Shown here piece after piece: positions 19,499 to 26,572 of a DNA stretch of 64,000 nucleotides; position 1 is the stretch's first letter, and each line of letters starts with the position of its first letter. The stretch is from the sequence record JX128257; one strand, 5' to 3'. The translations under genes and the position numbers were made by a program. Under the pieces are notes generated by a model. It saw only the letters and a list, made by a program, of their open reading frames with translations, did no database searches and had not been told where the DNA came from. This DNA comes from Escherichia phage ECML-4.

Positions 19499-20161
19499 AT
19501 GTCGTATTCGCTCAAAGGGTTGTTGAAGCGCCCCGTACATCTGTTTGTAAAACCACCTGCTGTCGAAGGGGAATATCCGGCACGAGGAGAGTTGTATTAC
19601 GTTAAAGGCTCCAACGGTAGCGGCAAGTCCACTGTCCCTTCCTATCTGGCGGAGAATGATCCTCAGGCGTATGTCGTGACCTACAATGGCAAGATCATGC
19701 TCACAGTTTGCCCTTCCTATAACATTATCTGTATTGGTAAATATGACAAGTCTAAGTCTAAAGGTGTTGATTCCCTGAAAGATACCGAGCAGATGTTGTT
19801 CGCCTTGTCCATTGCTGATCAGCCGGAATATCTGAAATATGACGTGTTGTTTGAAGGAATCATCCCTTCAACTTTGCTCAGCTCATGGATTCCCCGCCTG
19901 ACGCGCCCACCGCGCGAATTAGTCGTGCTCTTCATGGACACCCCGCTTGAAACCTGTGTTTCCCGTGTGAAATCACGCAACGGCGGCGCAGACTTCAATG
20001 AAAGCCTGGTTGTCGAAAAGTGGGAGAGAGTTCATGACCACCGCCAACGGCATAAAGGCTTGTTCCCTACCGTTCCCGCAGGTATGATGAAGTCCAATGG
20101 CCTGACTATAGAGCAGGCTGTTTTTGCGTTTCTCAATCGTGATTTTGGGAGTATTGATTGA
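19499..20161 (+). CDS. P-loop kinase (PNK/zeta-like; candidate nucleotide or DNA-base kinase)
   Basis: Walker A GSNGSGKST; ATG at 19499 with GGAG SD; directly upstream of and overlapping the thymidylate-synthase homolog. Confidence 0.6.
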   Translation: MSYSLKGLLKRPVHLFVKPPAVEGEYPARGELYYVKGSNGSGKSTVPSYLAENDPQAYVVTYNGKIMLTVCPSYNIICIGKYDKSKSKGVDSLKDTEQMLFALSIADQPEYLKYDVLFEGIIPSTLLSSWIPRLTRPPRELVVLFMDTPLETCVSRVKSRNGGADFNESLVVEKWERVHDHRQRHKGLFPTVPAGMMKSNGLTIEQAVFAFLNRDFGSID

Positions 20162-21201
20162 TGGAAATTTTTGCTTTAAACAATAATGATATGCTGAAGA
20201 AGGCTGTGTTGGCCATCCGTGAACACGGCATTGAGTCAGATCCTGGCAACGCAGAGATTAACACTGACGGCACTCGTTTCATTGATGGTGTAACAATTAC
20301 AGTATCAGATCCACGTGACCGTTGGCTTTCCGTTGAAGGCCGCAACTCGTCGGCAATTGCTGCCATCGGTGAGACATTCTGGGTGTTGTCCGGACGTAAT
20401 GATATCCGTTTCCTTTCGAAAGTCTTACCCCGCGCCGCCAACTTCTCTGATGACGGTGTAACCTGGCGAGGCGCGTATGGCCCACGTCTGTACAATAATG
20501 GCCAGTTGGATAGTGTCATCAGCCGTCTGCGTAATAATCCCAACACCCGTCAGGCGTATCTCACCATCTATGATCCGGCGCTGGACTCAGATGAAGGTTT
20601 GGCCGCCCATAGTGAAACTGGAGAAGCCAAGACCAAGGACATGATCTGTAATCTTGCTCTATTGTTCAGTATAACAGAAGGGCGATTGAATATCACTGTC
20701 ATTAACCGCAGCCAAGATGTCTTGTGGGGCATGAGTTCAATCAATTTCATTGAATTCTCTATCCTGCAAGAAGTTCTGGCGAAAGTGCTGAATGTCGAAG
20801 TTGGGTATTACAAACTGTTTTCTAACAATCTTCATTATTACAACAATGAAGTTAGTCGGAAACAACTCGGGGGTATCACTAAGAAGACCAAAACTTCTTC
20901 TGGGATGTACAATTCTTTGCTGGAATTCTCTTCAGAAAAAGTGAAGTCCCAAAAAGATATTTGTAATCTATTCCTCGGCGTGTTACATCACTGTGACATC
21001 GGCAGTGATTTTGGTAAAATCAGAGAACATCTGAAAGGATATCAAGCAGACACGGGATTGATGATGGATATGTCATATTGCCTGTGGTGTCGACTCAATG
21101 ATACCAAAATTGACAAACGCCGTATCGCTGATGACGGTCTTCGTACTGCATTACTGCATTCCCCTGTTGATCAGAAATTTATGTGGGGGTATGGCGAATG
21201 A
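20161..21201 (+). CDS. thymidylate synthase family enzyme (divergent; candidate pyrimidine hydroxymethylase)
   Basis: TS-family motifs (ETFWVLSGRND, RQAYLTIYDP, RSQDVLWGMSSINF); Cys-Asn instead of Cys-His at the nucleophile motif; about 80 aa C-terminal extension. Confidence 0.8.
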   Translation: MEIFALNNNDMLKKAVLAIREHGIESDPGNAEINTDGTRFIDGVTITVSDPRDRWLSVEGRNSSAIAAIGETFWVLSGRNDIRFLSKVLPRAANFSDDGVTWRGAYGPRLYNNGQLDSVISRLRNNPNTRQAYLTIYDPALDSDEGLAAHSETGEAKTKDMICNLALLFSITEGRLNITVINRSQDVLWGMSSINFIEFSILQEVLAKVLNVEVGYYKLFSNNLHYYNNEVSRKQLGGITKKTKTSSGMYNSLLEFSSEKVKSQKDICNLFLGVLHHCDIGSDFGKIREHLKGYQADTGLMMDMSYCLWCRLNDTKIDKRRIADDGLRTALLHSPVDQKFMWGYGE

Positions 21202-21767
21202 TGTACCAGAACCTTGAATTCTTCACGGGGCGCAAGCGCTCCGGCAAGGACTTCTGTTTGGAGTCCCTGATCAGTTTTCATCATATTCAGGGTGATAAGG
21301 ATATTCGTCGTCTGTCTTTCTCAGATGAACTGCGACGTGTCGCCAATTTCATCTACCCATGGCTACCAGCGGAGGTGGAGGATGCCGTGAAGGACGTTCC
21401 ATTCGTACACCCTGATAACCCCAAGGGCTTAACCCCACGGCAGATCTGGCTTCATCTGGGCAGCGATACGGGATTGCGTTATGTACAACCAGACCTGTTC
21501 CTGTCATTCTTTAAACGATATCAACTTCCTTTGGTGGAGCAGAACCCACACGTTCATTATATCGTGAGTGATTTGCGCACCCCTCAGGAATATGAATGGG
21601 CGCTGAGCACTAAATGTCCCATCACCCGCATTTCAAAGGCGGATCGCGGTGGTATCATAGAGGATGACATTGAGGCTTTCATTGATAAGATGGAAGTTGA
21701 TTATGAATTTGTCAATCCGTTTGAAGGTTGGCAACCGTTCGTCAAATTTTATAGGGATCGGAAATGA
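21198..21767 (+). CDS. deoxynucleoside monophosphate kinase (T4 gp1-like)
   Basis: GRKRSGKD P-loop variant characteristic of T4 dNMP kinase; ATGA overlap with the previous gene. Confidence 0.7.
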   Translation: MMYQNLEFFTGRKRSGKDFCLESLISFHHIQGDKDIRRLSFSDELRRVANFIYPWLPAEVEDAVKDVPFVHPDNPKGLTPRQIWLHLGSDTGLRYVQPDLFLSFFKRYQLPLVEQNPHVHYIVSDLRTPQEYEWALSTKCPITRISKADRGGIIEDDIEAFIDKMEVDYEFVNPFEGWQPFVKFYRDRK

Positions 21768-22309
21768 TCACAGCAGAGCATATTAAAAGTCTGCTCGAAC
21801 TTCAAAAGGCCACCAACGTGGCCTACTTTGGGGAAGAGTGGCGTAAACATTGGACTGAGGTTGCGGTGGTGAATTCTATCTATCGTGAGTGGGCTGAATT
21901 CCTTGACGAAGTTTCCAGCAGTTGGAAAATCTACGGCAATGACCAGCAATGGCACCAAGTGGATGCGGTGTATGAACTAGTGGACGTGGTTCATTTTATG
22001 TTGTGCGCCGTACTGCAGGAAGAAGAAAAGCCACACGATATCCCAGAAATGGTTCGATTCGTGCAGACACAACCAATCCAAAAACCGCATGACCTCAGGA
22101 AAGTGACTGAACTGTTCACGTACTTCATGTCTCATCCTGAACGTAACGTGTTGGCTACCTTCTTGGCGTGTGCTTGTGGTTATCTAGGACTGGACGCCGA
22201 AACTTACATGCTGGCACACAAACGCAAAAATGATCGCAATCGGCTGCGTGCTGCTGGCGGTGCGAACTACGATAAGTCCGCAGAAACCCCTCTGACCCTG
22301 GAGTTCTAA
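21764..22309 (+). CDS. dimeric all-alpha dUTPase/dCTPase-like NTP pyrophosphatase
   Basis: EWAEFLDE ... WK ... ELVDVVHF pattern of the dimeric dUTPase family. Confidence 0.6.
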   Translation: MITAEHIKSLLELQKATNVAYFGEEWRKHWTEVAVVNSIYREWAEFLDEVSSSWKIYGNDQQWHQVDAVYELVDVVHFMLCAVLQEEEKPHDIPEMVRFVQTQPIQKPHDLRKVTELFTYFMSHPERNVLATFLACACGYLGLDAETYMLAHKRKNDRNRLRAAGGANYDKSAETPLTLEF

Positions 22310-22839
22310 TGTTTACAGTTGTCGTATCATATTATGCGGAACATGCCCCGCGCATGGCAGAGAACTTCGCTGAGTTTATTAAACCAGGCGGTCATGTCGT
22401 TATTGCGACCAATTTCAAGAAAGAGCCAGATGGTGCGGCTACTGTAACACAACATATTACAACCAAAGAGCCGGAAACACTTTTTAAACGCATTGAAGAT
22501 TTTGCTTTTGGCGGGGAAGAAATTCCAGAGTCATTACAGCATATCTATTTTGAAGATGCGATATATTATGTTCATGCTATACCAAAAGATGTTACAACCG
22601 AACAACTAATGTATGTTTTGAATATTGCGTTAAATTTGTCATGTGTCAATAGGGCACAGCATAATCGTCTGCGCAATATGTATTTAACAGAACGCGGGGG
22701 TTCCGGAATCAGTGATGAAAAACTCCCGTCGGTAATGGCAATTCAAGAAGCAATTAACATATTGTCCAAGAAAGTCTTGGGCACCGATTTATTAATCACG
22801 ATCAACAAGCAAGAGGAAACGAAATGGCCGATTCATTGA
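22309..22839 (+). CDS. hypothetical protein
   Basis: ORF with start/stop overlap. Confidence 0.5.
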   Translation: MFTVVVSYYAEHAPRMAENFAEFIKPGGHVVIATNFKKEPDGAATVTQHITTKEPETLFKRIEDFAFGGEEIPESLQHIYFEDAIYYVHAIPKDVTTEQLMYVLNIALNLSCVNRAQHNRLRNMYLTERGGSGISDEKLPSVMAIQEAINILSKKVLGTDLLITINKQEETKWPIH

Positions 22840-23909
22840 TGGCTCGCATGCTCAAGACAGCAAAGAAACTGGACCCGAATGCCGAAGTGCTGTCAAAGAC
22901 CGATGCGTTGAAGCCTGACATTATTTGCAGTACGGGTATTCCTATTCTGAATTTGGCCTGGTCCGGTCGTATTGATGGTGGTCTGATATCAGGCATCAAA
23001 CAGTTGGTGGGGGATTCTCGTACATTCAAAACCATGTTTGGGCTGGTGGATGTTAAGGCTTACATGGATAAATTTCCTGATGCAATTTGTATCTTCGCGG
23101 ATTCCGAAGGCGGTGCGAATGAAAACTACTGGACATCTATGGGTATTGACATGGACCGTGTCTTGTATCTGCCGATTGAAAACGTTGAAAAGACGAAGAT
23201 TAAGCTGACACAGCTTCTGAATGATGCTCAGAAAGGTGACAAGATCATCGTATTCATCGACTCAATCAGCCAGTTGCCGTCTACCAAAGAAGTTGACGAT
23301 GCTATCGCGGGCAAAGACACACAAGATATGACTCGCGCTCGCGCTCTCAATAGTTTTTGGCGTGTTATCACTCCGTTGGTCACTGAAAAGAAATTCGTTT
23401 TGGTATGGATCAACTCGTACTATGATGAAATCGGGAACCAATACGCCGAGCCGAACATCAAAGGCGGTAAACAGGGGTTCCTGTCTTCTAACCAATTGTG
23501 GTTCATCACCCGTTCTCAAGTTAAGGAAGACAAAGATCTTCTGGGTTGGCAATTCACTGTTAACATCATGAAAGGTCGCTTTGTCCGTGAAAAATCCAAG
23601 TTCCCTGTCACTGTGTTGTACGAAGGCGGTATTGACCGTTGGTCCGGTATGTTAGAAATTGCGCGCATGCTGGGGTATGTGGATTTGGTGAGTGGTTCTT
23701 GGTATCAACGTACTGCCAAAGGCGGGTTTGATCCAGAAAAAGAAAAGAAATATCGTAAGGCAGAGCTGGGGGATGACTTCTGGTATCCGTTGCTGGAAAA
23801 CCCAGACTTTGTTGACGATGTGAACAACATGTTCGGTATCTCCCAGAGTTCGGTTATGCCTGCAGATATGCTGGAGCGCCTCGATCATGTCATCAAAACA
23901 ACCGAGTAA
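22824..23909 (+). CDS. uvsX: recombinase UvsX (RecA-like)
   Basis: Colinear similarity to T4 UvsX (ILNLAWSGRIDGG, FIDSISQL, DMTRARAL, KSKFPV); AGAGGAAA SD. Confidence 0.9.
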   Translation: MADSLMARMLKTAKKLDPNAEVLSKTDALKPDIICSTGIPILNLAWSGRIDGGLISGIKQLVGDSRTFKTMFGLVDVKAYMDKFPDAICIFADSEGGANENYWTSMGIDMDRVLYLPIENVEKTKIKLTQLLNDAQKGDKIIVFIDSISQLPSTKEVDDAIAGKDTQDMTRARALNSFWRVITPLVTEKKFVLVWINSYYDEIGNQYAEPNIKGGKQGFLSSNQLWFITRSQVKEDKDLLGWQFTVNIMKGRFVREKSKFPVTVLYEGGIDRWSGMLEIARMLGYVDLVSGSWYQRTAKGGFDPEKEKKYRKAELGDDFWYPLLENPDFVDDVNNMFGISQSSVMPADMLERLDHVIKTTE

Positions 23910-24216
23910 TATTGCAGGGGGAGGAGACTCCCCCGTTAATTACAAAATCATCGACCCTGGTTCTGATCAGTTAGCTATTATCGAAATAACGGAAGGCAAG
24001 TTCCGCGGTGTTCAATTTCGTATAGGAAAAGTGGGTGTCCATGTAGACAATGGAGAACCTCGGTTATCCTTTACGACGGATATATTGAAGAAACCATGGC
24101 GTTTGTTATTTGTTAATTTGAAAGAAAATGACTTGTTCACTGTGGTGTCTGGGGATATCTTAGTTGATCTGATACAGCAAAATGCTCAGGATTACAACAA
24201 AATTTTGGTGGGGTGA
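23887..24216 (+). CDS. hypothetical protein
   Basis: ORF overlapping the uvsX stop. Confidence 0.45.
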   Translation: MSSKQPSNIAGGGDSPVNYKIIDPGSDQLAIIEITEGKFRGVQFRIGKVGVHVDNGEPRLSFTTDILKKPWRLLFVNLKENDLFTVVSGDILVDLIQQNAQDYNKILVG

Positions 24217-24228
24217 GTCTGGAGTCCT

Positions 24229-24711
24229 ATGTTAACACAGCAGTCTCTTAAAGAAATACTACATTATAATGAAGACACTGGTTGGTTTACATGGTTGGTG
24301 GACCGTGGTGGTACTGCTAAAGCCGGAACTCGAGCGGGTTCTTTGAAACCTGACGGATACAGGGCAATAAGAATCGGAGATAAGAAATATTTAGAACATA
24401 GATTAGCATTTCTCTACAAAACTGGTTCTTGGCCGAAGAAATTAGTTGATCACAAAAACCGGATAAGGGACGACAATCGTTGGTTGAACTTGAGAGAATC
24501 CAATAAAAGTCAGAATGCGGTCAACACAGATTTGTACAGCCATAATACCACAGGTGCGAGAGGCGTGTTTCGATACAAGGGTAGGTGGTGCGTGCAAATC
24601 AGAGTTGACGGGAAATATAGATCGTTCGGGTATTACAATGAATTCGAAGAAGCAAAGGAAATGGCAGACAAGGTCTACAAAGATTTGTTCGGAGAATTTT
24701 ATCAAGGCTAG
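24229..24711 (+). CDS. HNH homing endonuclease with AP2-type DNA-binding domain
   Basis: HNH motif (DHKNRIRDDNRWLNLRE) plus AP2-like C-terminal domain; free-standing between uvsX and the helicase. Confidence 0.75.
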   Translation: MLTQQSLKEILHYNEDTGWFTWLVDRGGTAKAGTRAGSLKPDGYRAIRIGDKKYLEHRLAFLYKTGSWPKKLVDHKNRIRDDNRWLNLRESNKSQNAVNTDLYSHNTTGARGVFRYKGRWCVQIRVDGKYRSFGYYNEFEEAKEMADKVYKDLFGEFYQG

Positions 24712-24751
24712 TGATTGTCCTCTGTCAAACCAAATAATTTAGGAACACAAT

Positions 24752-26176
24752 ATGTTACTCGAATCTGTCGTGCTTTCCCAATTAATCTACAATGAAGAAT
24801 ATCAAAGAAAGATCCAGCCGTATTTGAAAGCCGATTATTTCGATAACGAAGGCGAGAAGATTATATTTGGTCTTATAGACCATTACACTTGCGAATATAA
24901 TGCTCGTCCTTCGGTTGAAGCGCTGTCTATTATGCTGGAAAAGACTTCGCTCAATGAACACGTATTTGATCAGGCCATTTCTGCTCTTGAAAATATTAAT
25001 GACAATACTTTTCATCAGGACTGGTTAGTAAAAGAAACAGAAAGTTGGGCGCGTCAAAAAGCTGTTCATAACGCAATTAGACAAGCCGTTAACATATACG
25101 GCGATGAGAAACGCAAAGATGAGATGAACAACATCCCTACTTTGCTGCAAGAAGCCCTGGCGATTCAGTTTGATTCATATCTCGGCCATATCTATTGGGA
25201 AATGGCTGAGCAACAATACGACCACATGAACTCTAATGAAGCGAAGATCCCTTTCGCCGTAGAGATATTCAACAAAGCAACTCGTGGTGGTGTTGGCAAG
25301 AAGACATTGAACATCGTTACAGGCGCAATCAACGCAGGTAAGACAACAACTCTGATTGATTTGGCTGCTGGTTATGCTGAGCAGGGGTTGAATGTATTCG
25401 TATTCACCCTCGAAGTGGCCGAGAACGTCTGGCGTCACCGCCTTGATGCCCGTATGATGCGCAGGGACTTCGAGTCCTTAGAGAAGCTCTCACGGCACGA
25501 GTATATTGCCACCATACAAAAACTGAGAACCCGTCAAGACGGTTCTATGAAGGGTGATATTGTTATCAAGGAATATCCTTCGGGCGCGGGGCATACAGGT
25601 TTATATCGTCGCGATATTCTTGATTATGCGACTGCAACAGGAATTACGCCTGATGTTATCATCATTGACTACCTGGGGGAATCTGCGTCTTCTCGCCTTC
25701 CCGCTCACTTGATGCAAAACACCAACGTGTATTATACATCCGTGGCGCGGGAATTCCGTGCTCTTGGGTTTGAGTTTGATTGCCCTGTTTGGACAGGCAT
25801 GCAGTTTAACCGTGAAAAGCAATCAGCAACTGATGGTGATATCAGTGACTTGGCAGACGCTATCGGTATCCCGAAGGTCGCTGACTTTATCATGGCGTTT
25901 TATGCCCCAGACGAACTGGCGGCTGTTAAGAAAGCCAGAGCATCAATCTTGAAAAATCGTTATGCCAACAAGCAGAAACTCAAATCTTTCTTGTTCGGTA
26001 TGGACCAAGATAAACAGATCTTGTTCGACTTGGACTGGAATGAAGTCAAACGAGACCTGACTGATGAAGAAGCCCGTTATGTTGAAAACGTGCATATCAA
26101 GCATGACTTGAATAAAACGGGGGACTCAAATGATGTTAAAAAAGCCGAGACCGTCAATAGTTGGAATTTCGGTTAA
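24752..26176 (+). CDS. gp41: replicative DNA helicase, DnaB family (T4 gp41-like)
   Basis: 474 aa; Walker A GAINAGKTT and DnaB-like C-terminal ATPase architecture. Confidence 0.85.
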   Translation: MLLESVVLSQLIYNEEYQRKIQPYLKADYFDNEGEKIIFGLIDHYTCEYNARPSVEALSIMLEKTSLNEHVFDQAISALENINDNTFHQDWLVKETESWARQKAVHNAIRQAVNIYGDEKRKDEMNNIPTLLQEALAIQFDSYLGHIYWEMAEQQYDHMNSNEAKIPFAVEIFNKATRGGVGKKTLNIVTGAINAGKTTTLIDLAAGYAEQGLNVFVFTLEVAENVWRHRLDARMMRRDFESLEKLSRHEYIATIQKLRTRQDGSMKGDIVIKEYPSGAGHTGLYRRDILDYATATGITPDVIIIDYLGESASSRLPAHLMQNTNVYYTSVAREFRALGFEFDCPVWTGMQFNREKQSATDGDISDLADAIGIPKVADFIMAFYAPDELAAVKKARASILKNRYANKQKLKSFLFGMDQDKQILFDLDWNEVKRDLTDEEARYVENVHIKHDLNKTGDSNDVKKAETVNSWNFG

Positions 26177-26239
26177 CTTCAATAATGGTGGTCATAGGGT
26201 ATAATCTCTATGATCTGAATATTAACCCAGGAGCACATC

Positions 26240-26572
26240 ATGTCGGATGTTGCATTTATAGCTGACCTGATTCAGGCGGCACAACAGGTGTGCCAGTCTG
26301 GACAAACCAGTCTCAGTCTGTCTACAGAGCAGACATTGGAATTTTACAAGAATCGACGGCATTGGGGTAAGGCTGTTAAGATACATTGCGAACCAGGAGA
26401 ATTGGTTCAGCTCGATCTTCCATCTTTCCCGTTGCCAGTGCAGACCAATACTCAGGAATATTATAAAGTTGAAGGTGTCGACATTATTCCTAAGTTTGGT
26501 TTCCACAGTATCGTTTATTTCTTCCTGCGCCGTTTGGGGACCAGTATTGGCCCACTCGGTTCTCGTCATTAA
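26240..26572 (+). CDS. hypothetical protein
   Basis: ORF with AGGAG SD. Confidence 0.45.
   Translation: MSDVAFIADLIQAAQQVCQSGQTSLSLSTEQTLEFYKNRRHWGKAVKIHCEPGELVQLDLPSFPLPVQTNTQEYYKVEGVDIIPKFGFHSIVYFFLRRLGTSIGPLGSRH

Follow-up and report, generated by a model that had tools for sequence, protein, structure and literature searches.

The free-standing Seg and Mob enzymes of phage T4 often cut inside a neighbouring gene, and their carrier is protected by polymorphism of the target. In I-HmuI, the HNH homing endonuclease of Bacillus phage SPO1, the residues equivalent to D74, H75 and N96 of the protein described below have catalytic roles; this enzyme is a strand-specific nickase, and it also cuts intron-containing DNA. 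The HNH-AP2 enzymes are a recognised class of phage homing endonuclease, forming a column ('HNH-AP2') in Table 5 of Petrov et al. 2010 (PMC2993671). The class is also discussed in Barth et al. 2023 (PMC10448857), where Magnani et al. 2004 is cited for its presence in phages, cyanobacteria and ciliates.

The window analyzed in the present study, i.e. the whole 64,000-nt stretch of DNA from Escherichia phage ECML-4 (JX128257), belongs to the genus Kuttervirus (Ackermannviridae, Cvivirinae), and is 98.9–99.1% identical to the Salmonella phages Maynard and Hercules_SET over 25 kb. We consider it likely that this DNA carries a free-standing HNH-AP2 homing endonuclease gene on a 537-nt cassette, located between a conserved 109-aa ORF and the DnaB-like helicase gene (table 1). 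The original prediction had placed the endonuclease ORF between uvsX and the helicase. The helicase does adjoin it, but strictly the neighbour on the upstream side is the 109-aa ORF.

Table 1. Features of the uvsX–helicase region, in positions of the window.
Feature	Position	Strand	Evidence or remark
UvsX-like recombinase	22824..23909		Neighbour upstream; Pfam, PHROGs
109-aa ORF, function unknown	23887..24216	+	phrog_3998, PHROG match E 1.6e-60
Left half of split junction, TTTTGGTGGGGT	24203..24214	+	Inferred left part of homing target
Putative mobile insert, 537 nt	24215..24751	+	Alignments of filled vs empty junctions
GGAG, insert-borne Shine-Dalgarno of endonuclease gene	24221..24224	+	4 nt upstream of ATG, read from sequence
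HNH-AP2 endonuclease ORF, 160 aa, ATG start	24229..24711	+	
I-HmuI-like N-terminal beta region and HNH_3 catalytic core, residues 1-98	24229..24522	+	Family profile vs 1u3e
AP2-type DNA-binding domain, residues 109-149 (Pfam), fold to about residue 157	24553..24675	+	
AGGA, replacement Shine-Dalgarno for helicase, from insert 3' end	24741..24744	+	Ribosome binding site in Marshall and Maynard records
Right half of split junction, ATGTTACTCGAATCTGTCGTGCTTTC (helicase start)	24752..24777	+	Inferred right part of homing target
DnaB-like helicase	24752..26176		Downstream neighbour; Pfam, PHROGs

The ORF directly upstream of uvsX (22309..22839, 176 aa) matched the 'Phage ACT-like domain' of Pfam (PF24021) along its whole length (E 2.9e-89); it encodes a conserved phage protein of unknown role and belongs to the nucleotide-metabolism/recombination module. 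Also upstream, positions 20158..21201 and 21764..22309 encode a thymidylate-synthase-like enzyme (labelled 'deoxyuridylate hydroxymethyltransferase' in Sa157lw) and a dUTPase_2/dCTP-pyrophosphatase-like protein. The SW16-7 paper mentions thymidine hypermodification for some Salmonella phages, and these upstream genes appear consistent with such a modification; any homing enzyme acting here would then have modified DNA as its substrate. Within Kuttervirus, the uvsX gene itself (22865..23900) has two or more allelic types that are very divergent: a 363-aa type, present in Marshall, Matapan and Det7, shows only about 70–78% nucleotide identity to the 361-aa type of the window, whereas the genes flanking uvsX are 99–100% identical. 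The pattern amounts to a sharp, mosaic exchange of a core recombinase gene. In Salmonella phage vB_SalM_SJ2 (KJ174317.1) uvsX is reduced to its last 134 codons. These are joined to the downstream end of a gene for a gp2-like DNA end protector, beyond which, upstream, lie a baseplate/tail tube gene and gp32. The fusion is located just to the left of the ORF109–HNH–helicase block, and reflects either a true rearrangement or an assembly error.

The 160-aa protein matched HNH_3 (PF13392) at residues 56-98 with 51.2 bits (curated cutoff 24.8; E 9.7e-14, Pfam), and the whole protein was assigned to phrog_99, 'HNH endonuclease' (E 1.4e-62, PHROGs). The single-sequence match to AP2 (PF00847) at residues 109-149 reached 22.6 bits, which is under the curated cutoff of 33.3 (E 1.3e-4, Pfam). 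Among the precomputed matches, 6 of 14 aligned homologues carried both PF13392 and PF00847. A search of the PDB with the single sequence (phmmer) gave zero matches, and a family profile was required to detect I-HmuI (1u3e) over residues 18-126 (E 1.5e-7) and the plant AP2 domains of WRI1 (E 1.2e-5) and TEM1 (E 2.4e-4). H57, D74, H75, D82 and N83 were invariant in the 15-sequence family alignment, and N77, N87 and N96 nearly so; in the family profile D74, H75 and N96 lined up with the same-numbered residues of I-HmuI. A beta-beta-alpha-metal fold follows an N-terminal DNA-binding sheet, and the C-terminal part has a three-stranded sheet on a helix, like solved AP2/ERF domains. As judged from these matches, the architecture is an I-HmuI-like N-terminal sheet and HNH core, with an AP2 domain replacing the C-terminal DNA-binding region of I-HmuI. 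The HNH motif, AP2-type domain and own Shine-Dalgarno sequence that had been read from the DNA alone were thus confirmed by the HNH_3 match, the AP2 profile matches and the GGAG 4 nt upstream of the start, respectively. The records of Marshall and Maynard likewise mark a ribosome binding site at this GGAG. No match in NCBIfam was obtained for the HNH protein, and no paralogue of it was detected by tblastn within the 64-kb window.

The endonuclease gene is intergenic, has its own start, stop and ribosome binding site, and lies outside any intron or intein, with both flanking genes intact. Three alleles (main, SS9-type and Agtrevirus) were found, all intact and with the full HNH core kept. Comparisons between them gave dS values of 0.52–0.85 and dN/dS values of 0.03–0.06; these low dN/dS ratios indicate that the protein is under purifying selection. 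Decay of the gene in SS9 (MK972699.1, 1906..2388), suggested by an annotated 39-aa 'HNH homing endonuclease' fragment, was rejected, as the full 160-aa ORF is intact and the short fragment is an annotation artefact. The state of the HNH core bears on a reading in which the nuclease is inactive and the protein is only a sequence-specific AP2 DNA-binding regulator, e.g. of helicase expression. AP2 domains serve as transcription factors elsewhere, and the translation initiation region of the helicase is replaced by the insert, both of which would suit such a role. Conservation of D74, H75, N83, N87 and N96, the alignment of three of these (D74, H75 and N96) with I-HmuI, and retention of the core in every allele argue against it, and we regard a purely regulatory protein as very improbable.

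A megablast search with the region from uvsX through the helicase matched 270 phage records, 175 of them covering at least 80% of the query. Most records cover 84% of the query in two pieces, with about 530 nt missing. Endonuclease DNA was present in 27 of the 270 matching records (20 at 99.6% identity or higher, and 7 at about 87%), and about 85% of close relatives are without the gene. On at least 10 of the 24 contigs that were read, the exact protein was found in the ORF109/HNH/DnaB helicase context. The near-isogenic phages 241 (empty) and Maynard (filled) differ by six genuine substitutions in 3.8 kb and a clean indel. Close relatives are thus precisely polymorphic for presence and absence at one site, and the comparison of the uvsX–helicase junction that the original prediction had proposed clearly did not find the ORF in all relatives. 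The insert looks mobile from these alignments, because most relatives do without it. HNH proteins associated with terminase, which aid DNA packaging, occur in many phages as a matter of general knowledge. The chance that the 160-aa protein is one of them is negligible: its gene belongs to the replication/recombination module, lying between uvsX and the helicase and not beside a terminase gene; it neither adjoins terminase or portal genes nor is conserved in relatives, most close ones lacking it; and the protein belongs to the HNH_3/I-HmuI-like group with AP2.

At empty sites, 8 nt (AGTTGCCA) stand where filled genomes have the 537 nt, and the boundaries were identical across all filled genomes. 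In empty genomes, e.g. phage barely, the 109-aa ORF ends with the stop codon TAG, followed by TTGCCA and then directly by the helicase ATG. The insert turns this stop codon from TAG to TGA and brings its own Shine-Dalgarno sequence, the ORF and a 40-nt tail with the new AGGA for the helicase. The leader preceding the helicase ATG is the native GGTGGGGTAGTTGCCA at empty sites, and TAGGAACACAAT where it is borne by the insert. A deletion between the ATGTTA repeats at the insert ends was considered as the origin of the empty sites and rejected, as it would leave GAGTCTGGAGTCCT before the helicase ATG and not AGTTGCCA. The empty state is shared by four genera and is unlike this terminal-repeat deletion product, indicating that it is ancestral.

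The two halves of the split junction are contiguous in empty relatives (e.g. locus L001, 1880..1925). Five empty genomes, drawn from four genera, were aligned, and 44 of the 46 columns of the empty junction (TTTTGGTGGGGTAGTTGCCAATGTTACTCGAATCTGTCGTGCTTTC) were invariant. This 46-mer ranks first of 2788 windows, the background being 62% invariant and the runner-up reaching 38/46. Across the four genera, no other 46-mer of the uvsX–helicase region is as conserved as the one that the insertion interrupts. The conservation extends to synonymous positions and to the 6-nt spacer. RNA folding of empty and filled junctions gave structures less stable than those of shuffles (z +1.5 to +1.7), and RNA structure is therefore not the reason for the conservation; translational coupling or an operator are possible sources of this nucleotide-level constraint. 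Neither an intact target nor a second copy of the 3' leader of the insert was found in the window. A scan of positions 22500..26500 for promoters and terminators gave counts that did not exceed those of shuffled sequences, with no convincing candidate inside the insert, and the endonuclease gene is probably co-transcribed by read-through of the uvsX operon. According to RNA folding, the translation initiation regions are unstructured.

Identity to the window was compared between the insert and its flanks. In Marshall the left flank, insert and right flank are 82.7%, 100% and 99.3% identical to the window, respectively; the corresponding values are 94.9%, 100% and 91.1% in FrontPhageNews, and 96.2%, 99.6% and 90.2% in BRM13313. 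Across eight diverged backbones the insert is 99.6–100% identical (pi 0.0016), and its history is uncoupled from that of the flanks. In Agtrevirus pSal-SNUABM-02, from another subfamily, the values are 70.0%, 87.3% and 74.9%, and the diverged allele occupies exactly the same junction. With empty sites common, boundaries precise, and insert and flank identity uncoupled, the claim of a free-standing homing endonuclease at a variable site was supported.

Diversity around the insert was examined in a detailed alignment of 20 genomes. Within 300 nt of the insert, pi was 0.004–0.03 in the eight carriers of the main allele and 0.008–0.048 in nine empty genomes, and further out it was 0.03–0.2. Within about 300 nt the carriers are 2–3 times less diverse than the empty genomes, in a region that is mosaic throughout the 20 genomes aligned. 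On alignment, BRM13313 looks like a SilasIsHot-type backbone in which the stretch between about 23886 and 24991 is of the donor type. In STML-13-1 the right-hand tract ends at most 38 nt from the insert. Kuttervirus genomes are strongly mosaic here on a scale of about 200 nt, and this includes the empty ones.

Since the genomes are mosaic on this scale, homologous recombination could move the insert between backbones without any endonuclease. The insert might then have spread passively, by ordinary homologous recombination, and the protein been kept for a benefit to the phage (for example, cleavage of the DNA of the host or of competing or co-infecting phages, or a part in repair) instead of for homing into the empty site. 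Mosaic breakpoints every few hundred bases across the region, in empty genomes too, agree with this explanation, as does the long-term selection on the protein that is seen in dN/dS values of 0.03–0.06 across alleles at dS 0.5–0.85; strong purifying selection, together with the presence of three old alleles at a single site, is also compatible with a gene beneficial to the phage. However, the insert is always at one exact junction, even in the other subfamily with flanks only 70–75% identical, and what it splits is the single most conserved 46-mer of the region. Moreover, diversity of the carriers is lowered specifically within about 300 nt of the insert, and about 85% of relatives thrive without the gene. 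Passive spread is for these reasons considered unlikely, although it deserves to be kept in view.

Under the homing model that we prefer, the 160-aa protein would act in mixed infections, binding the intact ORF109/helicase junction of an insert-free relative, TTTTGGTGGGGTAG-TTGCCA-ATGTTACTCGAATCTGTCGTGCTTTC, by means of its AP2 domain and the I-HmuI-like N-terminal sheet. The sequence GGTGGGG beside the insertion point is a plausible contact of the AP2 domain, because AP2 domains of the HNH-AP2 class reportedly favour GC-rich DNA (Magnani et al. 2004, as cited in PMC10448857). The HNH site (D74, H75 and N96) would then nick or cut the empty junction, and the cassette would be copied in, along with about 40–300 nt of flank, by recombinational repair from an insert-bearing genome. 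Cleavage itself, the position of the cut, and the choice between a nick and a double-strand break are parts of the model that we infer; in the literature no cleavage test, biochemical or genetic, was found for the 160-aa protein or its close relatives. The GGAG of the cassette and the replacement AGGA would keep the essential operon functional, and the cassette, apparently promoterless, would presumably be read through from the uvsX operon.

The carrier genome would be immune in this model as the insertion itself splits the target. Protection of the carrier by single-nucleotide differences in the target site, as in the intronless homing of T4, was considered and rejected, with zero variation over 121 nt on the left and 38 nt on the right among the Kuttervirus genomes compared. 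As no such difference separates filled from empty flanks, the simplest explanation of protection is that the site is split by the insertion. Since I-HmuI, the solved enzyme nearest in structure, also cuts intron-containing DNA, immunity by site disruption is not guaranteed by homology.

The cassette may also be a long-lived, partly domesticated element which rewires expression of the helicase, or a weapon that cuts the helicase start of co-infecting relatives, and the junction itself may be an unrecognised regulatory operator. We rate this as distinctly improbable. It is suggested by the holding of one junction across two subfamilies of the Ackermannviridae by three diverged, constrained alleles (dS 0.5–0.85, dN/dS about 0.05), by the exchange of the native translation-initiation region of the essential helicase for that of the cassette, and by the occupied junction being the most conserved 46-mer of the uvsX–helicase region.

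The 109-aa ORF just upstream had been thought to have possibly arrived with the endonuclease. This was refuted, as the ORF was present at every empty site examined. These were, in Kuttervirus, the sites of barely, 3HA11, pertopsoe, Se-H (an unannotated record, in which the ORF was judged from sequence alone), phage 241, S115, aagejoakim, SilasIsHot and Det7, and in other genera those of Agtrevirus SKML-39, Limestonevirus LIMEstone1 and Taipeivirus May. The ORF overlaps the 3' end of uvsX by 23 nt and abuts the helicase, whose ATG follows 5–7 nt later at empty sites. It is a resident core gene of the whole family, outside the insert, and this correction is useful for annotation. No match in Pfam or NCBIfam was obtained for the ORF (phrog_3998). 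Its place presumably resembles that of T4 gene 40, between uvsX and gene 41.

The finding is real, ordinary and already known; the main reading of the original prediction was right, and that of the 109-aa ORF was wrong. Beyond good annotation it has little significance. It does offer a natural and clear-cut case of a free-standing HNH-AP2 homing endonuclease gene with near-isogenic filled and empty partners (Maynard or Sa157lw versus phage 241), and the near-isogenic pair would be a convenient system for homing, for the length of co-conversion tracts and for cutting of hypermodified Ackermannviridae DNA. The insert also marks one difference among therapeutic and biocontrol Kuttervirus genomes that is unrelated to host range.

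In comparison with known systems, the gene shares with the HNH-AP2 class an N-terminal HNH and C-terminal AP2 arrangement, a small free-standing ORF between conserved phage genes, and variable presence. Unlike the class as a whole, the lineage described here is specific to the ORF109/helicase junction of the Ackermannviridae. The nearest homologues outside the Ackermannviridae lineage are at most 50% identical, and homologues at less than 60% identity were found in 2319 phage records (T5-like, T1-like, Jersey-like and others). I-HmuI (PDB 1U3E) is encoded inside a group I intron, whereas the gene here is free-standing and intergenic; the C-terminus of I-HmuI is a helical/helix-turn-helix DNA-binding region where the 160-aa protein has an AP2 domain, and the two proteins have only about 23% sequence identity. 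With the Mob and Seg enzymes of T4 ('intronless homing') it shares free-standing endonuclease genes between conserved genes, a large lytic myovirus as host genome, and possibly a spread with co-conversion of flanking markers. It differs from them in that no SNP distinguishes filled from empty flanks, and from Mob in having an AP2 domain instead of a zinc finger (PMC10448857). The closest described genes are Marshall_153 and vBEcoMSa157lw_00114 (both 'HNH homing endonuclease') and Maynard_152 ('HNH endonuclease'), which are 100% identical in nucleotide sequence over the ORF and lie at the same junction; the Sa157lw paper (PMC9686305) describes a putative HNH endonuclease ORF (ORF_9) as missing in phage ViI. 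The Marshall, Sa157lw and Maynard records consist of annotation alone, to which the current study adds the analysis of empty sites, co-conversion and the target site.
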